NCBI RefSeq assembly: GCF_038025025.1
Contig: NW_027117338.1
Coordinates: 1,674,001-1,738,000, forward strand
DNA: 64,000 nt
Direction: 5' to 3'
DNA from: Phyllosticta citribraziliensis
Lineage: Eukaryota
This document shows, piece by piece, positions 1,001 through 53,642 of the stretch; position 1 is the stretch's first letter, and every line of letters starts with the position of its first letter. The position numbers and the translations under genes are program-made. Under the pieces are notes generated by a model, which was given only the letters and a program-made list of their open reading frames with translations, had not been told where the DNA came from and searched no databases.

Positions 1001-2441
1001 ATGTCTCCAGTCGCCTCTGTACTCGGCGGCCTCGGCGCCCTTGCTTTGCTGACCCGGCCCGTCCTCGCCCAAGACGACCAAACGCAGACATGTTTTACCT
1101 ACGGCATGGACTTTCAGGGTGGTGGCACTTACTTTCAGAACGTTGCCTCTAGTGACAACTTCACATTTGTACAAGAGTTTGAGGGTAAGACTGAATGGAC
1201 AGCCATGTGTGGCAGTTGCTGATGCATGTCTAGGTTGCAAGAATGACGCTGCGTTGAACTTCCTCGTCGACCCCAACGGCAACCAGATTCAGTGTTCTTC
1301 GACACCGCTGCAGCCTGACGATGCGGACCAAATGTCGACATGGTGCGTTGCTCAACATCATCAGCCAGGCTAACGCTAACATGCCCAGTCCAATCACCAA
1401 GAGCAAATTGATTTCCGGAGCCTGGTCCATTCTCATCATGAGCAACAACGGAAAGGCTCCAGATGCAGGCCTTCCCATTGCCTACGAGCGTGACTTTAGC
1501 CTGACGGTTGGGCCACAACTGACTACGACTGTGAGTACTTATATTTCTCTTCCAGGACATGGCCTGACGTTCCTCAGTACACACCAACCGTCACTTCAAC
1601 AACTGTGATTCCTTCCATCGTCAACTCCACCACGACCTCGACGTCCCTCGTCTCAAAGACTCTCGCTGCTTCTACGGTTGTTGCACCTTCGACTACGCTT
1701 CAAAGGACCGTGACCATCACTCCGAAGGAGGTTATTGTCACCAAGACCACTGCCCTTCTTACCATTACGATCCCCAGCTTGTCCCTCTCGGTTTCCAAGG
1801 CCGTGGTCACGCAGACTGCCACCTGTATTCTCCCTACCAAGCCGCAAATTCCCGATCCTTTCGCCCACATTTGGCCCAAGTTCCCCACCGCAAAGTCCAT
1901 CATGAGTGCTGCTTCCGCCGCAGCCACTCCCACTTCGGCCAAATTTCGCTTCGTCAAGGGCCGTGGTCTGGTCCATGATGATCTCCCCAAGTGGCTGGAA
2001 GAACGCGAGGCTCGCCTGGCTGCTGCCCAAGAATTGGACAAGCGTGCCCCTGACCCGCAGCCATTGACCGTCACCGAGCAGGATACGACCAAGTGGGTCA
2101 CCGTGACTTCGACCAGCATGGCTCCCCCAGTCACCAACATCGTCAATGCCACCGTTGTCAGCACCACCATGATCCAGCCTCCCGCTGTTGTTGTCCTCAG
2201 CGGCCGGACAACTCTGACTCCTGCGACCATTACCGCCCCCACACCGACTACCACCAAGCTCTCGCTCACCATTGCAAAGACGACCCAGACATTCATCCAG
2301 ACTGTTCCGTACGTCAACTATTTTGTTCTTGAAATCGTTCCTGCTGACTAGAATAGCGTCACCGTTACCACCACGATTACCCCGGCCGCCGTCAAGACCC
2401 AGTGCCGCCAAGCTGGTGGCATTTTGAACAAGCTGTTCTAA
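1001..2441 (+). CDS. Secreted Thr-rich fungal protein of unknown function (5 exons)
   Basis: ATG 1001 with a signal peptide (MSPVASVLGGLGALALLTRPVLA|QDD). ORF pieces 995-1222, 1119-1373, 1321-1608 and 1605-2351 join through GT-AG introns with CTRAY branch points. Thr-rich body, Kex2-like LDKR|APD site, last exon ...CRQAGGILNKLF with TAA at 2439-2441. Confidence 0.85.
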
Positions 2442-4070
2442 TTTCCTTGCATTCACGACGAAACGTTTTTCCCAGTTTCCATTCTCGCACCCCAATTATA
2501 GATTCCGTGGATAGCTCGACTCGGTTCGCATTTCTCTGCGCGGCGACTCGGTTCAAAGTTACGGACGATGGTTAATCATTCGGCAAAGGCGGCGTTTCTG
2601 AGACTTTCATTGCGACAGATTTTCTTCTCGATACCATTACATGTTCCCAGCACATCGCATAGAGCATTGGGTCGCACGCTCCAGCTTGTCCATAGCATTC
2701 AAACATCACGTTGTCAGGGCGTTGGTGTGGTACAAAAGAGTCTAGCATGTATTAATTCCGTCATTCGTTTGATCTATCTTCTGGCCTCCTTGGTCCATTT
2801 GCAGCCGATTCAGGAGCGTCAACTCATCATCTTCCAACACCAATCTCATATCAATCTCAATGAGCACTTCTTAGGACGTTTTCTCGCCTCGTACTGCAGA
2901 TCAGCAAGCGGGATGATAGTGCAGCATGGCTTCGCAGGCTTGGTCTGACATATGCAAAAGCGCAGCGCTCCCGGTGCAGTGCTGGGTGTAGCACTAAGCT
3001 TCGGGACGCATTCCTGCCGCTACCTTCCGAGTCTGTCAGTCATGATGCTCTGCATTTGCACACGGCCTGCGGCACTTATGCTGCGCGCTGATCCTCAAGA
3101 AATTTGCCCTCGTTGCTCGGGACAAGGCAGATGCTGGATCAATTCATTCTGTGTCCGCAATCCCGTTAACTCTTCGAAAATCAACGACCAAGAGACTGAA
3201 ATCGACGCAGCAGAAAACTGAAAAACTCTCGAATTCGAACCGAGCCTACTAGCTCGACCCACAAGCTAAGCTTTGCATTTCTACCACCACGCTTTCGCAT
3301 GCACGTCATAGCATCATGACACAAGCGTTTCCGAGCAACAAAACCACATCACGCCACACACTCGACTCCACGACCACCGCCCAACCCCCTCGCTCTGCGA
3401 TCTCGAGGAAGAATACGCCAAGGATCCCGCTGCTGCGCACATCATCCACTACCTCTGCGTCCCATGCCCAACAACCACACGTCGCACCACTCCTTGTGCT
3501 CTTTCTCTCTCCCATCATCCATCACGCATCAGCCACCCCGTGTCCACCAAGCACAGCCGCAAGTAAGCACAAATACCTCGCGCTGCCTTCTGCGCAATCA
3601 TGTGGGTACGCGTCGTGTTTGAAGACCCACACGCGCACGTTCCGCGTCGTTTCGACCGTTCAGCTGCGGCTGTCAATTCCTGGCTGCGGCCGTGTCTAGA
3701 AGCGCAGTTGGCTGTCGAGTGAATCAGGAGGTGGGTAAGCTGAGGCTACTGAAACCCTTTTCACATCGCGGAAAAGGGAGTTTCGTTTCGCTCCGCTTCG
3801 CGCGATGCGGCGGCGGAGTGTTTGGCATCTCATATGTCCGTCTTATTCTGTTGCTGACAGGAGGAGTTAAAGCGAGCTGACAGGTCCAAACGAATGATCG
3901 ATCGTTTCTTGATGCGATGCGAGAAATCGGTGGCTTTGGCGTTATTTGAGTGCCCATTTACCGCATCAAAATTCTCATAGGTTCTGGGCGTCGAATTCTC
4001 TTCGTCGCTTCTTCGAATATTATCATACTCACTTGCTTGAAAACTAGAATATACTGACACACTGTGTGCC

Positions 4071-4204
4071 AAAAGAAACGGGATACCTTTGGTCTGGCTG
4101 CAGCATCAAATGGCTGCTCCCCAAGCGCGACCATGACAGCGAATGGATACTCCTTGACTGTGATCACAGTAGCGAATGAACGCTCCCTAAGTGCACTCAC
4201 ATTG
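4071..4204 (-). repeat. Degenerate 33-bp tandem repeat array, copy A (~4 units)
   Basis: Core CTCC/TACC recurs at 4084, 4117, 4150, 4183 (33-bp spacing). The minus strand reads gtgagtgcacttagggagcgttcattcgct...cgtttcttt. Confidence 0.75.
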
Positions 4205-4360
4205 CCAGAAGATCTCAATTCTTTCCATACCCACTGTGCTATCTGAACTTCTTGCTAGGTTGCTTCCATGGCGACTCTTTTCCCCGCAAGAGGCCCACTT
4301 CTTCGCGTAAATGCCCAGGTCGCCGGCAAGCCTGCTTGTCTTCGCAAAAAACGCACAAGG

Positions 4361-5632
4361 CTACAACTTCTTGCAGTAAGTGTAATGTAACAGACCTCCT
4401 GGAACTAGGGGTAGGGTTGAGGGAGGCGCAATCATCTTTGTCCCCTTCTTGCGGCGTCTGGGATTTTCTTCCGTCAATCTTTTCAACCGACTGGCACGGG
4501 CAGCCTTCTCCCACACTCCAATCTCATTTGTAGGGATCCTGAGTGCCTTCATCGTCGCAATGGACTTCGTGATTTCTGCGCCGAAGCCTTTTCTGATGTC
4601 ATTCTTCCGCGCCCTCCATTTCGGGTCGCTAGCCCGACGTCGCTCTGCGTCGTTGCCGCGTTTTCGGCGCTGCTCTTTTACCCACTCCGAATCGATGAGG
4701 GTCCCTTCTTTGGGTGTGTTGAAACCCTCCCTCAGCGGAATGGATCTGTTCGTGGGAGCCCATGGCAAGTCGACCTCGCTCCAAGGGCTGAGCTCGAGTA
4801 GGGTCTGCCGCGTCTATCCTGCGGCGTCGGGGAACGCGGTCTTGGGGAACGCGGTCTTCAGGAACGACTGGATCAGAGTTTGGAATAGAGGGCATGCGAC
4901 TCGCACCTCGATGACGGATGCCGCCGTTCCATCTTCCAACTCTTCTTACACAGCCACAAGCTTTGAGTCAATCCGCCTCTTCACGCCCTGGTCAAGCAGT
5001 TGATTCGGAAATGACTTTTCTGCGTGCTTGTAGTGGAGGTGCTCGTGTATGCGGTGTGAGATCCACCGGATGAGGCCAGTTGCTGTGCCGCCGTACGCCC
5101 AATTGGAGTTGCCTTCAAGCTCCTGGCCGCCAGAGATGAGCAAGAGGTAGCAGCCAAGTTCGTCTTGGCCAACGGCCATTGGCAGTGTGTCCAAATCCTT
5201 CTGCGTCGATGGGTTTTCGCGATTGAGTATTTCCAGGAATTCGGGAGTCGCCATTTTGTAGAGGCGCGCCGCCCAAAAGAAAGCATCGCGCTTGTGGAGC
5301 ACCTGATACGTGAAGAGCCACAGATGGACGCTGGCCAATGACAAAATGCCGGCGAGAAAGGCGATCAATCGATCGTAGAAGAGAGGGTGGGTCTCAAGGA
5401 TAGTGAGGTCGTCGAAGTCCTTGATGGAGACGTCCTTGGTAGTGTCCTTGTCAGAGGAGTTGGAGGAATCGAGCTCGATGTCGTCGGCGTCGTCGGAGTC
5501 AGAGTCGGACTCGGAGCAGTCGACTTCGTCATGGTCGTCGTCAGAGCATTTTTTCGTCGTTTCATCGGGAGGGTCGGTGTCATCGTTGGAGGAGTCGTGA
5601 GAGAAACCAACGTAAAGAGGTCGCCATTTCAT
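4361..5632 (-). pseudogene. GIY-YIG-like endonuclease pseudogene with acidic N-terminus
   Basis: ORFs 4946-5908 and 4361-4768 are in the same frame, separated by TAA (4946) and TAG (4814). The motif GCYLLL-x-WAYGGTATG-x-RIHEH resembles GIY...YIG...R. It is followed by WAPTNRSIPLREG and a basic tail. Confidence 0.55.
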
Positions 5633-47240: not shown

Positions 47241-48789
47241 ATGGAGGAAGACCGCGCGGCGACGAATCTGGGGCCAGAACCAGTCGAAGAACTGAACGCG
47301 GAGCAGAATTCGGCTCCTAAGCAACCCAAGAGACGGTTCGTTGGAAGGAAAACCGCAGCCGGAACAGCAGCAGCAAGATCAAATCCCGACCCAAACGCAA
47401 ACATCGAAGATAGCGGTGCAATTCAAGGCAAGAGAACCAGAAGAAATGATGTCCAAACTCATGCTAATAGATTAGGCAGTCGCACCACCACGGAGAACAG
47501 CTCGCGCGCTCAACAACATCCCCGCGTCCATCCTCGAGGACCCCGACATCAACGAAGCCATATCCCTTCTCCCTACAAACTACAATTTCGAAATACACAA
47601 GACGATACATCGCATTCGCTCCAATGACCACAAATCAGTCGCTCTTCAGTTCCCTGAGGGACTTCTCCTGTTCGCCACCACAATCTCGGACATCCTGACG
47701 CAGTTTTGTCCCGGAATAACCACAACGATTATGGGAGACGTTACATACGGCGCATGCTGTATAGATGACTTCACTGCGCGGGCGCTGGGCTGCGACCTGT
47801 TGGTGCATTACGCCCACAGTTGTTTGATTCCCGTGGCAGTCACAAAAATCGCAACATTATACGTCTTCGTCAGTATCGGCATAGACACGCAGCACCTAGT
47901 CGACACGATACAACGCAACTTCGCTCCAGGCAAGACTATCGCCATGGTTGGCACGATACAGTTCAACGCCACCATCCACGGCATCGCACCACAGCTACGG
48001 CGAGAAGGCTACGAAGTAGTCGTCCCACAGATCATGCCTCTCTCCAAGGGCGAAATCCTCGGCTGCACGTCGCCACGACTCGCCGGTCCCAAGTCCAAAT
48101 CCTCTTCTCTCCTCCCATCAGCCACCACAAAGGCCTCCAAATATGACCCGCCATATGCAGACCTCATTCTGTACCTGGGAGACGGCCGCTTCCACCTCGA
48201 ATCCGCCCAAATCCAAAACCCGCACTTGCCCTCCTACAGCTACGACCCGTACAGCCGGCGCCTAAAGCACGAGACGTACGCCCATTCCGACCTCTACGCC
48301 CTGCGCACGACGGCGATCCAGTCAGCGCGCAAAGCCAAGAAATGGGGACTGATTCTCGGCGCCCTCGGACGCCAGGGCAACCCCCACACGCTGACCATGA
48401 TCGAAAACATTCTAAAGAAGAAGAGGATCCCGTGCCTCAAGATCCTGCTGAGCGAGATCTTTCCCGGCAAGCTGCAGCTGATGAGCGCGAGCGAGGAGCA
48501 GAAGAAGCCGCAGCAGGCGGGCTCCAACGATGGCGACTGCGAGGATGGCGGCGTCGAGGCGTGGGTGCAGATTGCGTGCCCGCGTCTGAGCATCGACTGG
48601 GGCTACGCGTTCCCACGGCCGCTGCTGAGCCCGTACGAGGCGCTAGTCGCGCTGGGCGTGCGAGAGGCCAAGTGGATGGATGCGGCGGAGAGGGGCGACG
48701 ACGCGGCCCAGGAGGTCTATCCCATGGACTTTTACGCCAAGGAGGGACTGGGAAGGACGACGGCGGGACAAGTAGAAGTTGTAGCATAA
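47241..48789 (+). CDS. DPH1: Diphthamide biosynthesis protein 1
   Basis: [80 protein letters not shown]. Confidence 0.96.
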
Positions 48790-49051: not shown

Positions 49052-51927
49052 TCACCGAATAGTGTCCAAACCATGCCTGTCCGCACCATGCAGCTCCTCC
49101 AAAATCTCACTGCCGCCCAGCGCACCCAACGGCTTCGCCTTCCTGCGCTCCTCGCTCCACACCTCATGAAACTTGATGCTGGTGTCGCTCGTGGCGACAA
49201 CGATGCAGCCCTCGACCTGGGTACGGGACCACCAAGCGCCACCCTCACCGCGGGTACGCCCGTCATTGGGACCGCCGGGATACGCTATGGCGAAGAGGGC
49301 ACGGTGGTCGTCGGGCCAGGGGACGGCGACGAGCTGTTCGCAGGCCGGCCAGCTGAAGACGGCGACGCGATACGGGTGGTCTGGCTGCGCAAAGCCAAAT
49401 GTCGCGCAGATCTCGCGTCGCGTCGTGCTCCAAATGAGCGACGTCACTTGGGCGCTGCAGTCGATGGTGGCTAGGCATGCGCCGCTGAAGGTGTGGTAAA
49501 AGTGGATGCATCGGTCGTTGGACCCGCCGCCGATGGCTAGCAGACCGCGCTGCCACGGGCAAAAGGCCATGGCTTTGACGGCTGCGTTGAGAGTCCAGCA
49601 ATGCTTTGCGGCTGTTGCGTCAATGTCCGTCACTTGGAAACGATCCTTCATTGCTGCACAAAAGTTGTTGAGCGAACCAAAGAGGCGCTTGGTATCAAAA
49701 AGAAAACACTGATTGTCGTTGCCACCCGAGGCGAAAAATTCACCGTACGGGGACCACGCGAGGCCACATATCTGCTGGGAGTGGACGTTGATTCGGGCAA
49801 GCAGGGTCATTGCACCTGGCCAATTGAAAAGGTCTCGAGAGGTGACGTCGGGCCATTCCACAGAAAAGAGATAGACGTGACCTTCTTCATCGCCAACCAA
49901 GAGCGTCTCCGTACTGGCCACCAAAGCCGGGTCCCGAATCGAGGATTGCTTGACTGTGTTTGGACTGAAGGAGAGACATGATATGGGAGCTGGTTGCCGA
50001 GCTTTGAATCGAGGTTCTTCGTCAAACAGACTCCACAGGCAAACGGAGCCGTCAGCGCGACCAATGGCCAGTATGGCTTGGCCGCCATCGCTGGACGAGA
50101 AAGATAAAGAGGTCACATGTGCTGTGTAACTTGCGTTGATACTTTCAGGTGTGCCCACACCTCGTGTCTCGGACCACAAGTAGACGCTGTGGGCAAGACC
50201 GACGGCAAGACAGTTAGCCGTGCGCGAGTAAGCAAGTACGGTGCAGTAAAAGTCATCCCGGAGTCGCGGCGCATCGAGTACTGTGCATGATGTCAGCAGA
50301 AGGTGTCGCGCGTAAGAGGCCAACGTATCTGAAGGGGATGGTTGGAACAGGTCTTCTTTCTCGTGATGACTTCTTTGGGTCTGTTGCTTGTCAGCATATT
50401 TAAGCAAATTGTGATGATAGCAAGGGAACGACTTGTAGTGCATCCTTCTCTGATCCACTGGCTGTTTATCCAGGACGGAGCGCGAGAAGTATTCTCGCCC
50501 GGAGGAATTCCTGGCTTGTCAAAAGATCCAAGCACACGGCTAGACGTATCTATATCCATTGCATGCGCCAGCCGGCGCTCATGCTCCTCCTGAGCACTCT
50601 CAGAGTCGACCTGGGTGAGGAACATGGTCGTATGCAACGGAGCGTTGGTCCCGCTGCTCAGCATGCCCCCTCTGCCATCGGGTATGCCAGGTACACTGTC
50701 CGTGACTATGGCAGATCCGCCGACATTCCACACTGCTCCGTTGCTGACCTCACGACTGCCATGTCGAGGAGCTAGAATACCTTCCGGGCTGGGTGAGCTT
50801 GGGCCGATTCCAGCAGGTCGAACAGCACCTTGGAGGTTCTGGTACGATTGGATCCTTGTGCTGCGTGGAACGTGTTGGCCAAAAGGATCAAACTCAGGAT
50901 GTCGTTGGCGTGTGAATTTCTCGACCTCAGACAAGTTTTCCGCCGGCGTGCTCAATCGCAATGTCTCCCTGGAGGTTGTGGGTGATTTCCGCGGAGGAAT
51001 AAATCTGTCCAAGCACCTGCTTGCGATACGTTCTCGCACATGAGAGCCACTGGGGAAAGATCCTCTCCGCATTTTGAAAATCGAGCCACGGTCTCGAAGC
51101 GCAAGCGGCGACAGAATACTCGCTTTACGTTCTTGCTGCGGGAACGGATACGCGTCAGCCGCCTGAGTTGCCGGGATGAGAGGCGTTGGTGTTTCCAGCA
51201 TATCACGACCAGGACTTGGAAATGCAACGTTGACCGGATTGGTGAGATCAATGGACATCGCGTGCCTTCGAGCCGTATCGTCCGAGCTTCCACCAGGTAC
51301 AGAGGTGGCATCTGGAAGCCTAATGTCTCCATCGGCATCTTTGACCTGACAAATGTCGTTCTCATCCAAAGAGAGTTTCAATAGCCCACCAGAGATGGAT
51401 TCGTCGGCGGGAGAGGCATCAGGCATGTCCACATCTTCATCCATGCCATCGATCTGTGTGAGGACATCAGAAGGAGCCAGAAAGTTGTTGTTCTCGTATG
51501 ATTTGGATGGGCAAACTTGTCCTCTCAGAGCCCATTTTGGAGGCTGAGAACTGTCGGACAGTCGTCGCTAACGGCGTATCGAGCTCCCTTGATTCTGATA
51601 TGTTGGGTTGAGAGAAAAGGTGCTGGCCAAGTCGAAGACCGGCTTCGGAGGACTGCTCGGAGGAGTCAACAGGTGCCCCTTCACAGGTTCCGATCTAGTA
51701 TTTTTATGATTTCCAAATTGAACACGCTTTGAAGAGTCCGAACTGCTTGCGGGGTATCCTTGGCTGTACGAATGGATGGATTTTGGTGGAGTCGGCGGCG
51801 GGGTAAGAGTTGGGATGTTGGAAAAGTCTAAGCCGCTGCCGGCCTTTGGCAAAACAGAGTGATCAGCATAGCGAGACTTTTCCAATCCGGTAAGAAATCT
51901 GGGCGAGTCCTTCTTTGCGGGCTCCAT
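49052..51927 (-). CDS. AMA1: Meiosis-type APC/C activator Ama1 (Cdc20/Fizzy WD40 family) with in-frame TAG and AT-AC intron
   Basis: C-box DRFIP, PFR|VLDAPRLRDDFY, HSQQICGLAWS, ASGGNDN, AAVKAMAFCPWQ, GGGSNDRCIHF, QVTSLIWS, C-terminal IR tail. Upstream ORF 51568-51927 is in frame with 50293-51444 across a single TAG. Introns 50381-50432 and 50283-50328. Confidence 0.88.
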
Positions 51928-52428: not shown

Positions 52429-53642
52429 ATGGCCAGCGTGCGTCGAACTTGCCCTTCTACGCCACACCAGCAAGTTCTAACGAGACCAGCATGGCGTTCC
52501 GCGCACGGCGGCGGCGGCTGAGCGCACCGAGCGCACGGAACAGGCGAGGCAAAAGGAGCGCCAGCAGATTGAGCAATACAAAGGACTGGTCGCGCTGGTG
52601 AATGCAAAGGTTCAAGACGCTGTCCGTTCTCCAATAAAGGCAAGCTGACGCGGTCTCTCAGGTCGCCGATAAGCAGTACACAGAAGAAGCTCTTGCCCTT
52701 ACGTCGAAGCTACTTTCGCAAAACCCCGAATACTACACCGTCTGGAACCATCGTCGCGTAATCCTACAAGACATATTTCGAAATGCACAGGGAAAGGAGG
52801 CCGTTGAATCTGAGGGTCTATCCACGGCCCAGCAAACAATTCTGGGGTACATTGCCGACGACCTGCGATTTACCATACCGCTTTTGATGAAGTTTCCCAA
52901 GTGCTACTGGATATGGAATCACCGGCAATGGCTGCTGCAACAATCCACGGAGCTTCTGCCACAGTCCCAAGCACGAGGTCTGTGGCAAGAAGAGCTTGGT
53001 CTTGTCGGCAAGATGCTGAGTCGCGACAGTCGAAACTTTCACGGCTGGAGCTACCGGAGATTTGTAGTCGCGCGCCTGGAAGCACTACCCTCGGAGGACG
53101 GGCAGAAGACCAGCATGACCGAGCCAGAGTTTGAGTACACGACCAAGATGATCAACACCAACCTGTCGAATTTCTCGGCCTGGCACAATCGCACCAAGTT
53201 GATACCGCGGCTGCTCGACGAGCGCAGCGCAGACGAGGAGACGCGACGCAAATTTCTCAAGGCGGAATTCGAATTGATACAAAAGGCCCTGTACACGGAT
53301 CCCTACGACCAATCGTTGTGGTTTTACCATGCCAACCTCATGAGCGCGCTCGATGAGGCGACGCCCCAGAACGCGCGGATAATTTTCAACTTGGATAGAA
53401 ACGTGCGGCAGGAGTTTGTAGAAGAAGAATTGGAGAGCATCAAGGACATGCTTGATGGGGCTGAGGACTGCAAATGGATCTACCGAGCACTATTGGACAC
53501 GGCCGTCGCGCTCAAACAACTGAGAGAAGGAAACAACGTCGAATTGGATGAGGAGATGGCAGAATGGCTTTCGGAATTGAGGAAACTCGATCCGCTCCGC
53601 TCTGGACGATGGGATGATCTGAGTAAGAAGCTGAAGCTGTGA
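52429..53642 (+). CDS. BET4: Rab geranylgeranyltransferase (type II) alpha subunit, 2 introns
   Basis: MAS|HGVPR, NPEYYTVWNHRR, PKCYWIWNHRQW, DSRNFHGWSYRR, NLSNFSAWHNR, DPYDQSLWFYH, LDPLRSGRW. Confidence 0.95.

Follow-up and report, generated by a model that had tools for sequence, protein, structure and literature searches.

The AMA1-like gene of Phyllosticta citribraziliensis, a fungus of citrus leaves, is interrupted by a single in-frame TAG, at codon 120, and we consider it roughly an even bet (probability about 0.5), judging from comparative sequence evidence, that this stop is restored from UAG to UGG by A-to-I editing in the sexual stage, as in FgAMA1. In such a mechanism AMA1, an APC activator of the meiosis and ascospore stage, would be held off in vegetative cells by the TAG, editing in sexual tissue would turn the UAG of the mRNA into UGG (Trp120), and the edited message would give rise to full-length Ama1 with its N-terminal motifs, C-box, WD40 propeller and IR tail. 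The recurrence of TAG for Trp in otherwise intact AMA1 genes of related fungi suggests repair before translation, and the comparative evidence favours a repaired stop. What we infer is a bypass of the stop in this species, its dependence on editing and not on another route, and its limitation to the sexual stage.

An AMA1-like gene with one internal stop

The gene lies on the minus strand of the window, the 64,000-nucleotide stretch of DNA analysed here. An earlier note on this DNA had named it AMA1, and the call stands in the form of a Cdc20-family, AMA1-like APC/C activator, an assignment supported by a match to Pfam PF24807 (E 1.1e-61, 209.2 bits against a cut-off of 200), a C-box and an IR tail. 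For the two motifs we take DRFIPxR to define the C-box and a C-terminal IR to define the tail, by which DRFIPPR and the terminal ...GLDTIR of the translation are assigned. The nearest solved relatives are Slp1/Cdc20 (8.8e-36) and Fizzy-related/Cdh1 (2.4e-30), and the distant match to both fits a third paralog; the name AMA1 itself is borne by none of the 120 named hits listed, nor by any Atlas cluster. We presume the gene to be the ortholog of FgAMA1. The window is equal to the Phyllosticta citribraziliensis gene model in 621 of 621 residues, placing the host in the Dothideomycetes and, as the earlier note had considered, outside the lineages in which editing has been shown.

Read on the minus strand, the sequence runs ...ATA CGC CGT TAG CGA CGA..., with the TAG at 51570-51568 and the candidate edited A at 51569 (T on the plus strand). 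Upstream, a stop-to-stop ORF of 145 codons includes 119 codons counted from the ancestral AMA1 start codon (51925-51927, context CAACATGG, translated MEPAKK...). This ORF shares its frame with a 424-codon ORF on the same strand (50293-51567), and with introns placed the gene amounts to 925 codons, of which codon 120 is the sole internal stop; the common frame and the single intervening stop that had been proposed are both confirmed. The N-terminal coding part, codons 2-119 (51571-51924), contains the motifs LTPPPTPP and LLTPPSSP, while the remainder of exon 1 (50433-51567) covers codons 121-498 plus 1 nt and includes a conserved GAVWNVGG...GTNAPL block as well as the C-box, at codon 307 (51009-50989). 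There follow intron 1 (50381-50432, 52 nt, GT...AG, reading GTCGTT...CTGAC...AACAG), micro-exon 2 (50329-50380, ...NPKKSSRERRPVPTIPF plus the first 2 nt of an Arg codon), which the public Phyllosticta gene models skip, intron 2 (50283-50328), exon 3 (49055-50282) and the TGA stop (49052-49054). Exon 3 encodes the CDC20/Fizzy WD40 propeller matched by PF24807 together with the IR tail, and is 100% identical to P0049 over 408 residues. Apart from codon 120 the gene model is intact, with C-box, WD40_CDC20-Fz domain and IR tail all kept.

Coding sequence on both sides of the stop

The upstream ORF had been taken for genuine coding sequence on the strength of its motifs, and comparison with relatives bears this out. 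In codons 2-119, 65 of 118 residues are identical to the P. capitalensis-type ORF P0002, itself indistinguishable along 336 residues from P0052, the NCBI model of P. capitalensis. At the codon matching the TAG, the aligned proteins P0002 and P0046 have Trp and, since Trp has a single codon, the P. capitalensis codon is TGG in this protein-level reading. Identity to P0002 amounts to 55% before the TAG (codons 1-119) and 78% just past it (codons 121-161), and thus both flanks of the TAG are coding, including the stretch from the TAG to the next ATG. The ortholog alignment that had been proposed as a check hence gave Trp at codon 120 in P. capitalensis with conservation on either side.

The start of the protein is shared more widely. 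MEPAK also opens the Diplodia seriata protein and three further ORFs from Botryosphaeriales (MEPAK or MDPAK in P0002, P0005, P0006, P0007 and P0008), the N-terminus with MEPAK... and LLTPPSSP is kept across the order, and AMA1 relatives from several classes have motifs of the LTPPPTPP/LLTPPSSP type close to their N-terminus. Contigs of X4, X5 and X14 extend across the TAG position. Where contigs of relatives cover codons 2-119, the indels are all in-frame (3 and 18 nt) among the rows listed. A protein search with the 119-residue ORF as sole query returned 260 candidates, 0 of them significant. Trp120 itself is without conservation beyond Phyllosticta, which counts against the restoration reading. 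Contigs of X14, the only RNA-labelled run, derive from a relative of about 90% identity at low depth, and as they also cover intron 1 and upstream DNA they are uninformative on transcripts, splicing and editing.

TAG in place of tryptophan recurs in other AMA1 genes

We then considered 62 metagenome AMA1 loci, which were scanned systematically for in-frame stops inside homologous alignments. In three otherwise intact genes (L019, L021 and L040, each case a single contig) a lone TAG takes the very place of a conserved Trp. That of L019, at nt 839, is TGG in the sister loci L023 and L027. Those of L021 (nt 2876) and L040 (nt 4062) fall on one shared WD40 Trp. Of the 16 aligned sequences extending as far as this position, 14 have W, and the remaining two are L021 and L040 with their TAGs. 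In the tree, L019 and L021 group with Pleosporales references and L040 with Aureobasidium. The P0043 model stops just short of the shared WD40 Trp, and in A. subglaciale, for which the observation concerns protein models, 6 of 6 distinct models in the cluster end ...CECIVRVP, the residue before this Trp; across their WD40 part these models and L040 are 82% identical. Together with the window, the affected lineages are one Phyllosticta, two of Pleosporales type and one of Dothideales type, the site of the last coinciding with the end of the A. subglaciale models.

Constraint persists around these TAGs. The L019 branch has 35 synonymous against 2 nonsynonymous changes, the L021 branch 16 against 1 in the part 3' of the TAG, and in L040 the 108 codons past the TAG are open up to the IR tail and 64% identical to L018, compared with 68% upstream. 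These comparisons indicate that the coding sequence downstream of the parallel TAGs is under continuing purifying selection.

Several other stops from the scan were set aside. The TAG at nt 1920 of L040, L041 and L059 belongs to the acceptor of an intron, and the exon before it matches the Aureobasidium N-terminus in another frame; upstream TAGs in L018/L020, L061/L062 and L038 were left uncounted as acceptor-like YAG without a verifying relative; a TAA in L015 lies within the 5' leader, and a TAA at nt 1733 of L021 falls within intron read-through.

We give even odds to a broader proposition, drawn from the same alignments, according to which Dothideomycetes would own a sexual-stage UAG-to-Trp system with AMA1 as a recurrent target, at least four lineages having independently replaced one of three Trp codons. 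Together with the AT-AC intron described below, AMA1 would then be a multiply gated switch in the sexual cycle of fungi, and fungal mRNA editing would have either a deeper origin or a further independent gain.

Sequence context of the candidate site

In F. graminearum, edited sites are reported to prefer U at -1, C or U at -2, A or G at +1, +3 and +4, and G at +2 (mBio 2022, PMC9600606). Measured against these preferences, which stem from another class than that of the host, the window context UU-A-GCGA has the preferred base at 5 of 6 positions (-2, -1, +1, +3 and +4), +2 being C, which is depleted. The neighbours of the A were described correctly in the earlier note (U at -1, G at +1 and +3); of the five matches, however, -1 and +1 are dictated by the TAG itself, and the remaining three are expected by chance in about 1 in 8 cases.

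A small hairpin loop (CGCCG-UUAG-CGACG) had also been proposed at the TAG, but it is weak. Folding of the 30 nt on either side places the A in a loop of 5 nt closed by a 3-bp stem (MFE -10.9 kcal/mol, z +0.96), with 168 of 200 shuffles folding at least as well and an unstructured centroid. Among the parallel sites, the TAG of L019 lies in the loop, 8 nt long, of a hairpin that is stable (z -2.14), that of L040 in a loop (z 0.43) and that of L021 in a stem. Elsewhere in the window, ORF pairs bridged by one TAG involve only low-complexity or antisense frames.

Alternative explanations

The most serious rival is a young, unrescued nonsense allele, in which TGG became TAG not long ago by a G-to-A substitution, disabling or crippling AMA1 in a rarely or never mating lineage, and time has been too short for decay elsewhere in the gene; we regard it as a real, if unlikely, possibility. 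P. citribraziliensis is heterothallic and the reported strains are all MAT1-1 (bioRxiv 10.1101/2020.04.14.040725), so that a silent null allele would cost nothing, which speaks against restoration. The host class is moreover one without known editing, true decay of AMA1 occurs within it (L024, a pseudogene with a TAA, two TAGs, frameshifts and loss of the IR tail), and another clade has a CAA-to-TAA allele (L042). The window and X2, a sequencing run treated below, are identical over the 5 pieces listed and may represent a single clone. The case resembles the ordinary pseudogenes that nonsense mutations make of sex genes where fungal lineages are asexual, with one G-to-A stop, a gene needed only for sex and no known sexual state.

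Unlike such pseudogenes, on the other hand, the gene has no further lesions, and the same Trp-to-TAG replacement is present in other AMA1 genes that are intact and constrained downstream. A young null would require four independent first hits (window, L019, L021 and L040), all of them TGG to TAG, whereas frameshifts, TAA and TGA number 0 among the otherwise intact Dothideomycete-type genes. Two of the four TAGs moreover affect the same Trp, the one at which the A. subglaciale models end, and selection continues past the TAG in L021 and L040. Nor are amino-acid changes in excess in the window lineage, since 6 private changes stand against 5 in P. citrichinensis, a homothallic species that forms ascospores (599 columns), and there is accordingly no sign of relaxed constraint in the window species. 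The dinucleotide change typical of RIP, TpG to TpA, is also that of TGG to TAG, and this too counts against the restoration reading. A check for RIP found no AT-rich block near the gene (GC 0.51-0.61 per kb), and changes of the RIP type do not prevail among those private to L019, although four from GC to AT are clustered between CDS +90 and +137.

Initiation downstream of the TAG appears improbable. Translation, or transcription itself, would here begin past the TAG, at Met162, the first in-frame ATG past the TAG (51442-51444, within the conserved DGMDED), or at a later Met, yielding a shorter Ama1 that keeps C-box, WD40 and IR tail, with the 119-codon ORF as a uORF. Every known functional motif is indeed situated 3' of Met162, and public models of five Phyllosticta species begin at or after it, even in P. 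capitalensis with its open upstream frame. Such a start would however discard the MEPAK beginning, which is conserved, along with the motif of LLTPPSSP type, as well as codons 121-161, which are 78% identical to P. capitalensis and hold no in-frame ATG. Three out-of-frame ATGs intervene between the TAG and Met162; the ATG at 51927 is in strong context and opens an ORF of 119 codons, and reinitiation after an ORF of this length is inefficient in eukaryotes. The parallel case of L019 is not explained either, as its first AUG past the TAG is located beyond the C-box and a downstream start cannot rescue it.

We attach the same low probability to translational readthrough, whereby a near-cognate tRNA would decode the UAG (followed by C) and supply a low amount of full-length protein from unchanged RNA. 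The C after the window TAG is compatible with this, C being the leakiest context after a stop in yeast, and readthrough would likewise account for conservation 3' of in-frame TAGs. The parallel TAGs are followed by G (L019) or U (L021 and L040) instead, the window TAG lacks a CARYYA-type motif, and readthrough gives no account of why Trp codons alone are hit; UAG readthrough inserts Gln, Tyr or Lys, not Trp.

Removal of the stop by splicing is less probable still. In this scenario the G-to-A change would have strengthened a donor (GTTGGC to GTTAGC) or given rise to an acceptor (TTAG), creating a new in-frame intron at 51572-51522 (51 nt), 51572-51516 (57 nt) or 51684-51568 (117 nt), and the acceptor at nt 1920 of L040 provides a precedent for an apparent in-frame TAG of this kind. 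All three candidates are nevertheless without a CTRAY branch site, and they have either GAG or AAG as acceptor or a donor without G at +5; of 16 in-frame candidates two longer ones have CTRAY (at 13 and 32 nt), none being convincing. Splicing would in addition remove 17 codons that constitute the best conserved N-terminal part (WRRLSDSSQPP(K/R)WALRGQ, in which one residue differs from P. capitalensis), and the WD40-site TAGs of L021 and L040 are flanked by residues that are contiguous in all homologs.

Finally, a sequencing or assembly error is scarcely credible: the earlier observation was based on one record, yet X2, a run with the same organism label from another study, has a contig that spans 51419-51746 with 0 differing letters, and hence the TAG is not an assembly slip of a single record.

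Relation to known restorative editing

Hao et al. in 2019 are said to have found that the premature stop of FgAMA1 is corrected by sexual-stage A-to-I editing. The gene is given as PSC33, a premature-stop-correction gene with a top editing level of 63% (PMC10776026), bearing out its description in the earlier note as a known premature-UAG editing target, and the same source reports six independent TAG origins at one AMA1 site in Sordariomycetes (Sci Adv 2024, PMC10776026). The window gene resembles PSC33/FgAMA1 in its gene family, in the single in-frame TAG of an otherwise intact gene, in the Trp that would be restored, in the U at -1 and G at +1, and in the independent TAG origins recurring in relatives. 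It differs in that the host is a Dothideomycete, from a class without shown editing, and in that the case is known from DNA alone. The site, moreover, is Trp120 in a disordered N-terminus, and the likeness to FgAMA1 drawn here is one of gene. A further parallel is PUK1 of Fusarium and Neurospora, where according to the cited account an in-frame UAG is read as Trp after editing confined to fruiting bodies (PMC11156358); unlike the present case, PUK1 is another gene, has a tandem UAG-UAG, and its editing was shown experimentally.

The accounts cited here describe A-to-I mRNA editing as shown only in Sordariomycetes and Pyronema and as not found in Aspergillus nidulans and Botrytis, and they report an origin of the Ame1-Tad3 interaction in Sordariomycetes (PMC11156358, PMC11087585). 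The novelty claimed for editing outside the known lineages consequently stands in so far as the host is a Dothideomycete, but the idea was partly anticipated: single species of other Pezizomycotina classes with premature stops at PSC sites have been noted, editing there being described as 'yet to be determined' (Sci Adv 2024, PMC10776026).

The cases place a TAG for Trp in a textbook target gene of restorative editing, in Dothideomycetes that can be cultured. Were the stop repaired, editing or some recoding equivalent to it would be wider or older than believed, and the public AMA1 models of the class would be systematically wrong, with truncated starts, truncated ends (Aureobasidium) and a micro-exon skipped owing to the AT-AC intron. 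If it is not repaired, the cases would represent repeated early loss of a sex gene.

A conserved AT-AC intron

Intron 2 is predicted from the sequence to be a conserved U2-like AT-AC intron of AMA1, 46 nt in length. It reads ATACGT...CTGAC...CAC: the borders are AT and AC, the donor follows a GT-AG-like consensus, and a branch site is present, the CTGAC being placed 10 nt from the 3' end. These borders were chosen because no others restore PFR|VLDAP, and 13 of 39 distinct junctions are intron-less, reading PF(R/K)(V/I)LD(A/S)P unbroken. In yeast the AMA1 gate is a regulated GT-AG intron, and not a stop codon as in the window, and splicing of that intron is Mer1-dependent. The likeness between the yeast gene, with its meiosis-specific splicing (PMC10776026), and the window gene would be that of a post-transcriptional gate allowing active protein only in the sexual cycle. 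By analogy, the AT-AC intron could itself serve as a sexual-cycle gate comparable to the yeast AMA1 intron.

An in-frame TAG cuts a conserved AMA1-like gene

The minus strand encodes the gene and reads ATA CGC CGT TAG CGA CGA across the stop at 51570-51568. As an earlier note on this DNA had described, the ATG at 51927 (CAACATGG) opens 119 codons that share a frame with the rest of AMA1, and the sequence confirms a single TAG between them and the 424-codon ORF at 50293-51567. Using the window sequence and homologs without introns, we placed exon 1 at 51927-50433, a GT..AG intron of 52 nt at 50432-50381, a micro-exon at 50380-50329, an AT..AC intron of 46 nt at 50328-50283 and exon 3 at 50282-49055, all on the minus strand, with the stop codon at 49052-49054 (-). 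This model comprises 925 codons, the sole internal stop being codon 120, and includes a C-box (DRFIPPR, codon 307), the CDC20/Fizzy WD40 domain PF24807 (209 bits, cut-off 200) and an IR tail. Among solved relatives, Slp1/Cdc20 (8.8e-36) and Fizzy-related/Cdh1 (2.4e-30) match best, at a distance too great for orthology to either, and the gene thus probably represents a third, AMA1-like paralog. It is a putative ortholog of Ama1, a name carried by no Atlas cluster nor by any among the 120 named matches listed. The flanking ORFs at 47476-48789 (+) and 52638-53642 (+) we take, as the earlier note assumed, to be DPH1-like (diphthamide synthesis) and BET4-like (prenyltransferase alpha-subunit) parts, respectively.

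Over 213 + 408 residues, the translation matches the NCBI model P0049 of P. citribraziliensis without a difference, and its identity to P. citrichinensis is 98%. A 40-row tree nests it, fully supported, within Phyllosticta and Botryosphaeriales, hence the host is a Dothideomycete. The Logan ORF P0002, which agrees at every one of 336 residues with the NCBI model P0052 of P. capitalensis, is open from MDPAKH across the site and carries Trp exactly at the TAG position (...STRSWRRLSDSSQPPRWALRGQ). Identity between the window and P0002 is 55% over codons 1-119, 78% over 121-161, 74% over 162-300 and 84% over 301-497. Moreover, a MEPAK start is common to Diplodia seriata (951-residue model) and three more Botryosphaeriales ORFs, LLTPPSSP-like motifs recur near the N-terminus in AMA1 relatives of several clades, and the N-terminal indels in relatives' contigs are of 3 and 18 nt among the rows listed. 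With its in-frame flanks conserved in this manner, the TAG cuts genuine coding sequence, and the upstream ORF is conserved coding sequence, as the reading in the earlier note requires. The conserved motifs of the N-terminus thus end up on one side of the TAG, the C-box and propeller on the other. The ortholog comparison asked for in that note gives Trp at this codon in P. capitalensis; Trp120 is confined to Phyllosticta, which counts against editing.

Regarding the local environment, editing in F. graminearum favors C or U at -2, U at -1, G at +2 and either purine (A/G) at +1, +3 and +4 (PMC9600606, in excerpt). The window context, UU-A-GCGA, has the preferred base at five of six positions, two of these forced by the TAG itself, and includes the U at -1 and the G at +1 and +3 pointed out previously. 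The small loop suggested at the same place belongs to a weak hairpin, no more stable than shuffled sequence (z +0.96, with 168 of 200 shuffles equalling it).

TAG replaces tryptophan in other AMA1 loci

Scanning metagenome contigs with a profile recovered 62 AMA1 loci, none with more than 45% identity to the window. In-frame stops in homologous alignments were then sought by three routes: the first upstream stop, the WD40 exon and all-against-all tblastn (63 sequences), the last of which flagged nine stops in six loci. Two TAA codons were discarded as non-coding, one in the leader of L015 and one at nt 1733 of L021, the latter an intron read-through. Three single TAGs at conserved Trp positions occur in genes that are otherwise intact, L019 (nt 839), L021 (nt 2876) and L040 (nt 4062), each represented by a single contig. 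In L019 the codons read GGT TAG GCA, with TGG in the sisters L023 and L027, and ten other Pleosporales-type sequences have W in eight cases and C in two. The TAGs of L021 and L040 hit the same propeller Trp, of (V/I)P-W-x-(D/G)E-x-RAL. All other aligned sequences that reach the site have W there, as do 132/133 database proteins with the motif, a set biased against truncated forms because it was selected for high coverage. In the tree, L019 and L021 group with Pleosporales references and L040 with Aureobasidium (support 100/99). All six distinct A. subglaciale models in the cluster (P0043, P0171-P0175; nine accessions in all, the reference strain included, compared here as proteins) end in ...CECIVRVP, the residue before the propeller Trp, and share 82% of their propeller residues with L040. 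They stop exactly where L040 has its TAG, beyond which the frame of L040 stays conserved for 108 codons and reaches an IR tail.

Where measurable, the sequence downstream of the TAGs is under strong selection. The L019 branch has 35 synonymous versus 2 nonsynonymous private changes over 852 codons (sister, 34 versus 4), and neutral evolution for even 5% of the branch yields P = 0.01; a looser count gives 17 versus 6 plus the stop. For L021, the corresponding numbers are 16 versus 1 downstream of the TAG and 61 versus 15 upstream. In L040, the reading frame continues past the TAG for 108 codons, uninterrupted as far as the IR tail, with 2 and 5 stops in the other two frames, and identity to L018 is 64% after the TAG versus 68% upstream. 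Structure prediction puts the L019 TAG in a loop of 8 nt on a stable hairpin (z -2.14), the L040 TAG in a loop (z 0.43) and the L021 TAG in a stem.

L019 also displays the same double change, C-T-G to T-T-A, twice, 45 nt apart (nt 837-841 and 883-886). The first converts Trp to the stop; the second combines a synonymous change with Cys to Tyr (TGC to TAC) at a conserved Cys, the only other radical private change of L019 at a conserved residue. Seen post hoc, each new A stands in GUUA and would be reverted by A-to-I editing.

Editing and its alternatives

In otherwise intact Dothideomycete-type AMA1, the seemingly disabling lesion is TAG for Trp in four of four independent cases (window, L019, L021, L040), with no frameshift, no TAA or TGA and no stop derived from Gln among them. 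In two of the four the affected Trp is the same, and the protein models of cultured A. subglaciale terminate at that point too. Random first hits would rarely generate this pattern: in a RIP-like spectrum, Trp to TAG makes up about one quarter of nonsense changes, a rough estimate from typical codon usage rather than a count. Restorative UAG-to-UGG editing of FgAMA1 in Sordariomycetes gives the same pattern, with six independent TAG origins at one site (PMC10776026, in excerpt). The same excerpt mentions stops at premature stop correction sites in single species of other classes, A-to-I editing there being 'yet to be determined'. For the window itself the evidence is thinner, consisting of Trp in a congener, the good neighbor context and 6 private amino-acid changes versus 5 in P. 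citrichinensis. Overall, we assign a probability of roughly 0.5 to sexual-stage restoration of this AMA1 by editing, judged from sequence comparison.

Several observations weigh on the other side. According to excerpts of PMC11156358 and PMC11087585, A-to-I editing was not found in Aspergillus nidulans or Botrytis, and the interaction of Ame1 with Tad3 reportedly arose in Sordariomycetes. In the available part of bioRxiv 10.1101/2020.04.14.040725, P. capitalensis and P. citrichinensis are homothallic and P. citribraziliensis is heterothallic, the examined strains being MAT1-1 only; its sexual state and a MAT1-2 partner are unreported there, which counts against editing. So does the fact that TGG to TAG is the change RIP would make, and the L019 site has four clustered GC-to-AT changes nearby. 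A young, unrescued null allele is the main alternative explanation of the window TAG, considerably less probable than editing. Real AMA1 decay is usefully pictured by L024 (Pleosporales-type contig, nt 2300-4900), a true pseudogene with frameshifts, three stops (one TAA, plus TAGs at a Gln and a Trp position) and loss of the IR tail; in another clade, L042 has CAA changed to TAA.

Translation from a start downstream of the TAG is improbable. Every public Phyllosticta model begins there, even that of P. capitalensis with its open frame, so that these models are uninformative about the stop, and in L019 the next AUG lies beyond the C-box, making such a rescue impossible. Translational readthrough of the TAG we regard as equally improbable. 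Removal of the stop by splicing is less credible still: 16 in-frame GT..AG candidates span the TAG, with GTTAGC the only donor with G at +5 (partnered by GAG or AAG acceptors, 51 or 57 nt), yet the 51-, 57- and 117-nt candidates lack any CTRAY branch site, and the codons such an intron would delete are the best conserved of the N-terminus. A sequencing or assembly error can be practically dismissed, as a contig from run X2 (same organism label, separate study) covers 51419-51746 with 0 letters different. The only RNA-labelled run contained contigs of a relative of about 90% identity, also spanning intron 1 and upstream DNA. Contigs of organisms B and C reach across the TAG site as well, and the 40 of 532 differences listed include none at 51569.

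A predicted AT-AC intron adjoins the micro-exon

The junction between the micro-exon (...IPF-R) and VLDAP is restored only by AG/ATACGT...CTGAC...CAC/AG, the correct junction being fixed by the 13 of 39 distinct loci without the intron. The other 26 distinct junctions comprise 21 AT..AC introns, 3 GT..AG, 1 AT..AG-like (L049) and 1 AT..AA-like (L052). Carriers of the AT-AC form are the window (50283-50328, minus strand) and L001, L006, L010, L012, L016, L018, L019, L021, L023, L025, L026, L029, L030, L031 (classified by visual reading), L034, L039, L040, L045, L054 and L055. The conserved intron, as predicted, is in phase 2, inside the Arg/Lys codon before VLDAP, and measures 44-53 nt, with CTRAY approximately 10 nt from the CAC/TAC 3' end. 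The donors are U2-like with A for G1 (ATAAGT, ATATGT, ATACGT, ATAGGT and ATGAGT; AT[AG]NGT). Gene models in public databases for Phyllosticta, Diplodia, Aplosporella and Saccharata fuse ...GCTT to (I/V)LDAP and drop the micro-exon at 50329-50380 (-), encoding ...RRPVPTIPFR, likely because gene callers insist on GT-AG; the omission appears to be a misannotation imposed by the AT-AC intron. A limited literature search found no paper on an AT-AC intron of AMA1 in filamentous fungi, and such an intron could serve as a splicing gate for a sexual-cycle gene. In a further intron, L040 and L059 share without a single difference the 69 nt that precede the acceptor TAG (L040 nt 1920), versus 24 differences over 298 nt upstream of that stretch (region L040 nt 1520-1925), an unusual conservation of the 3' part.
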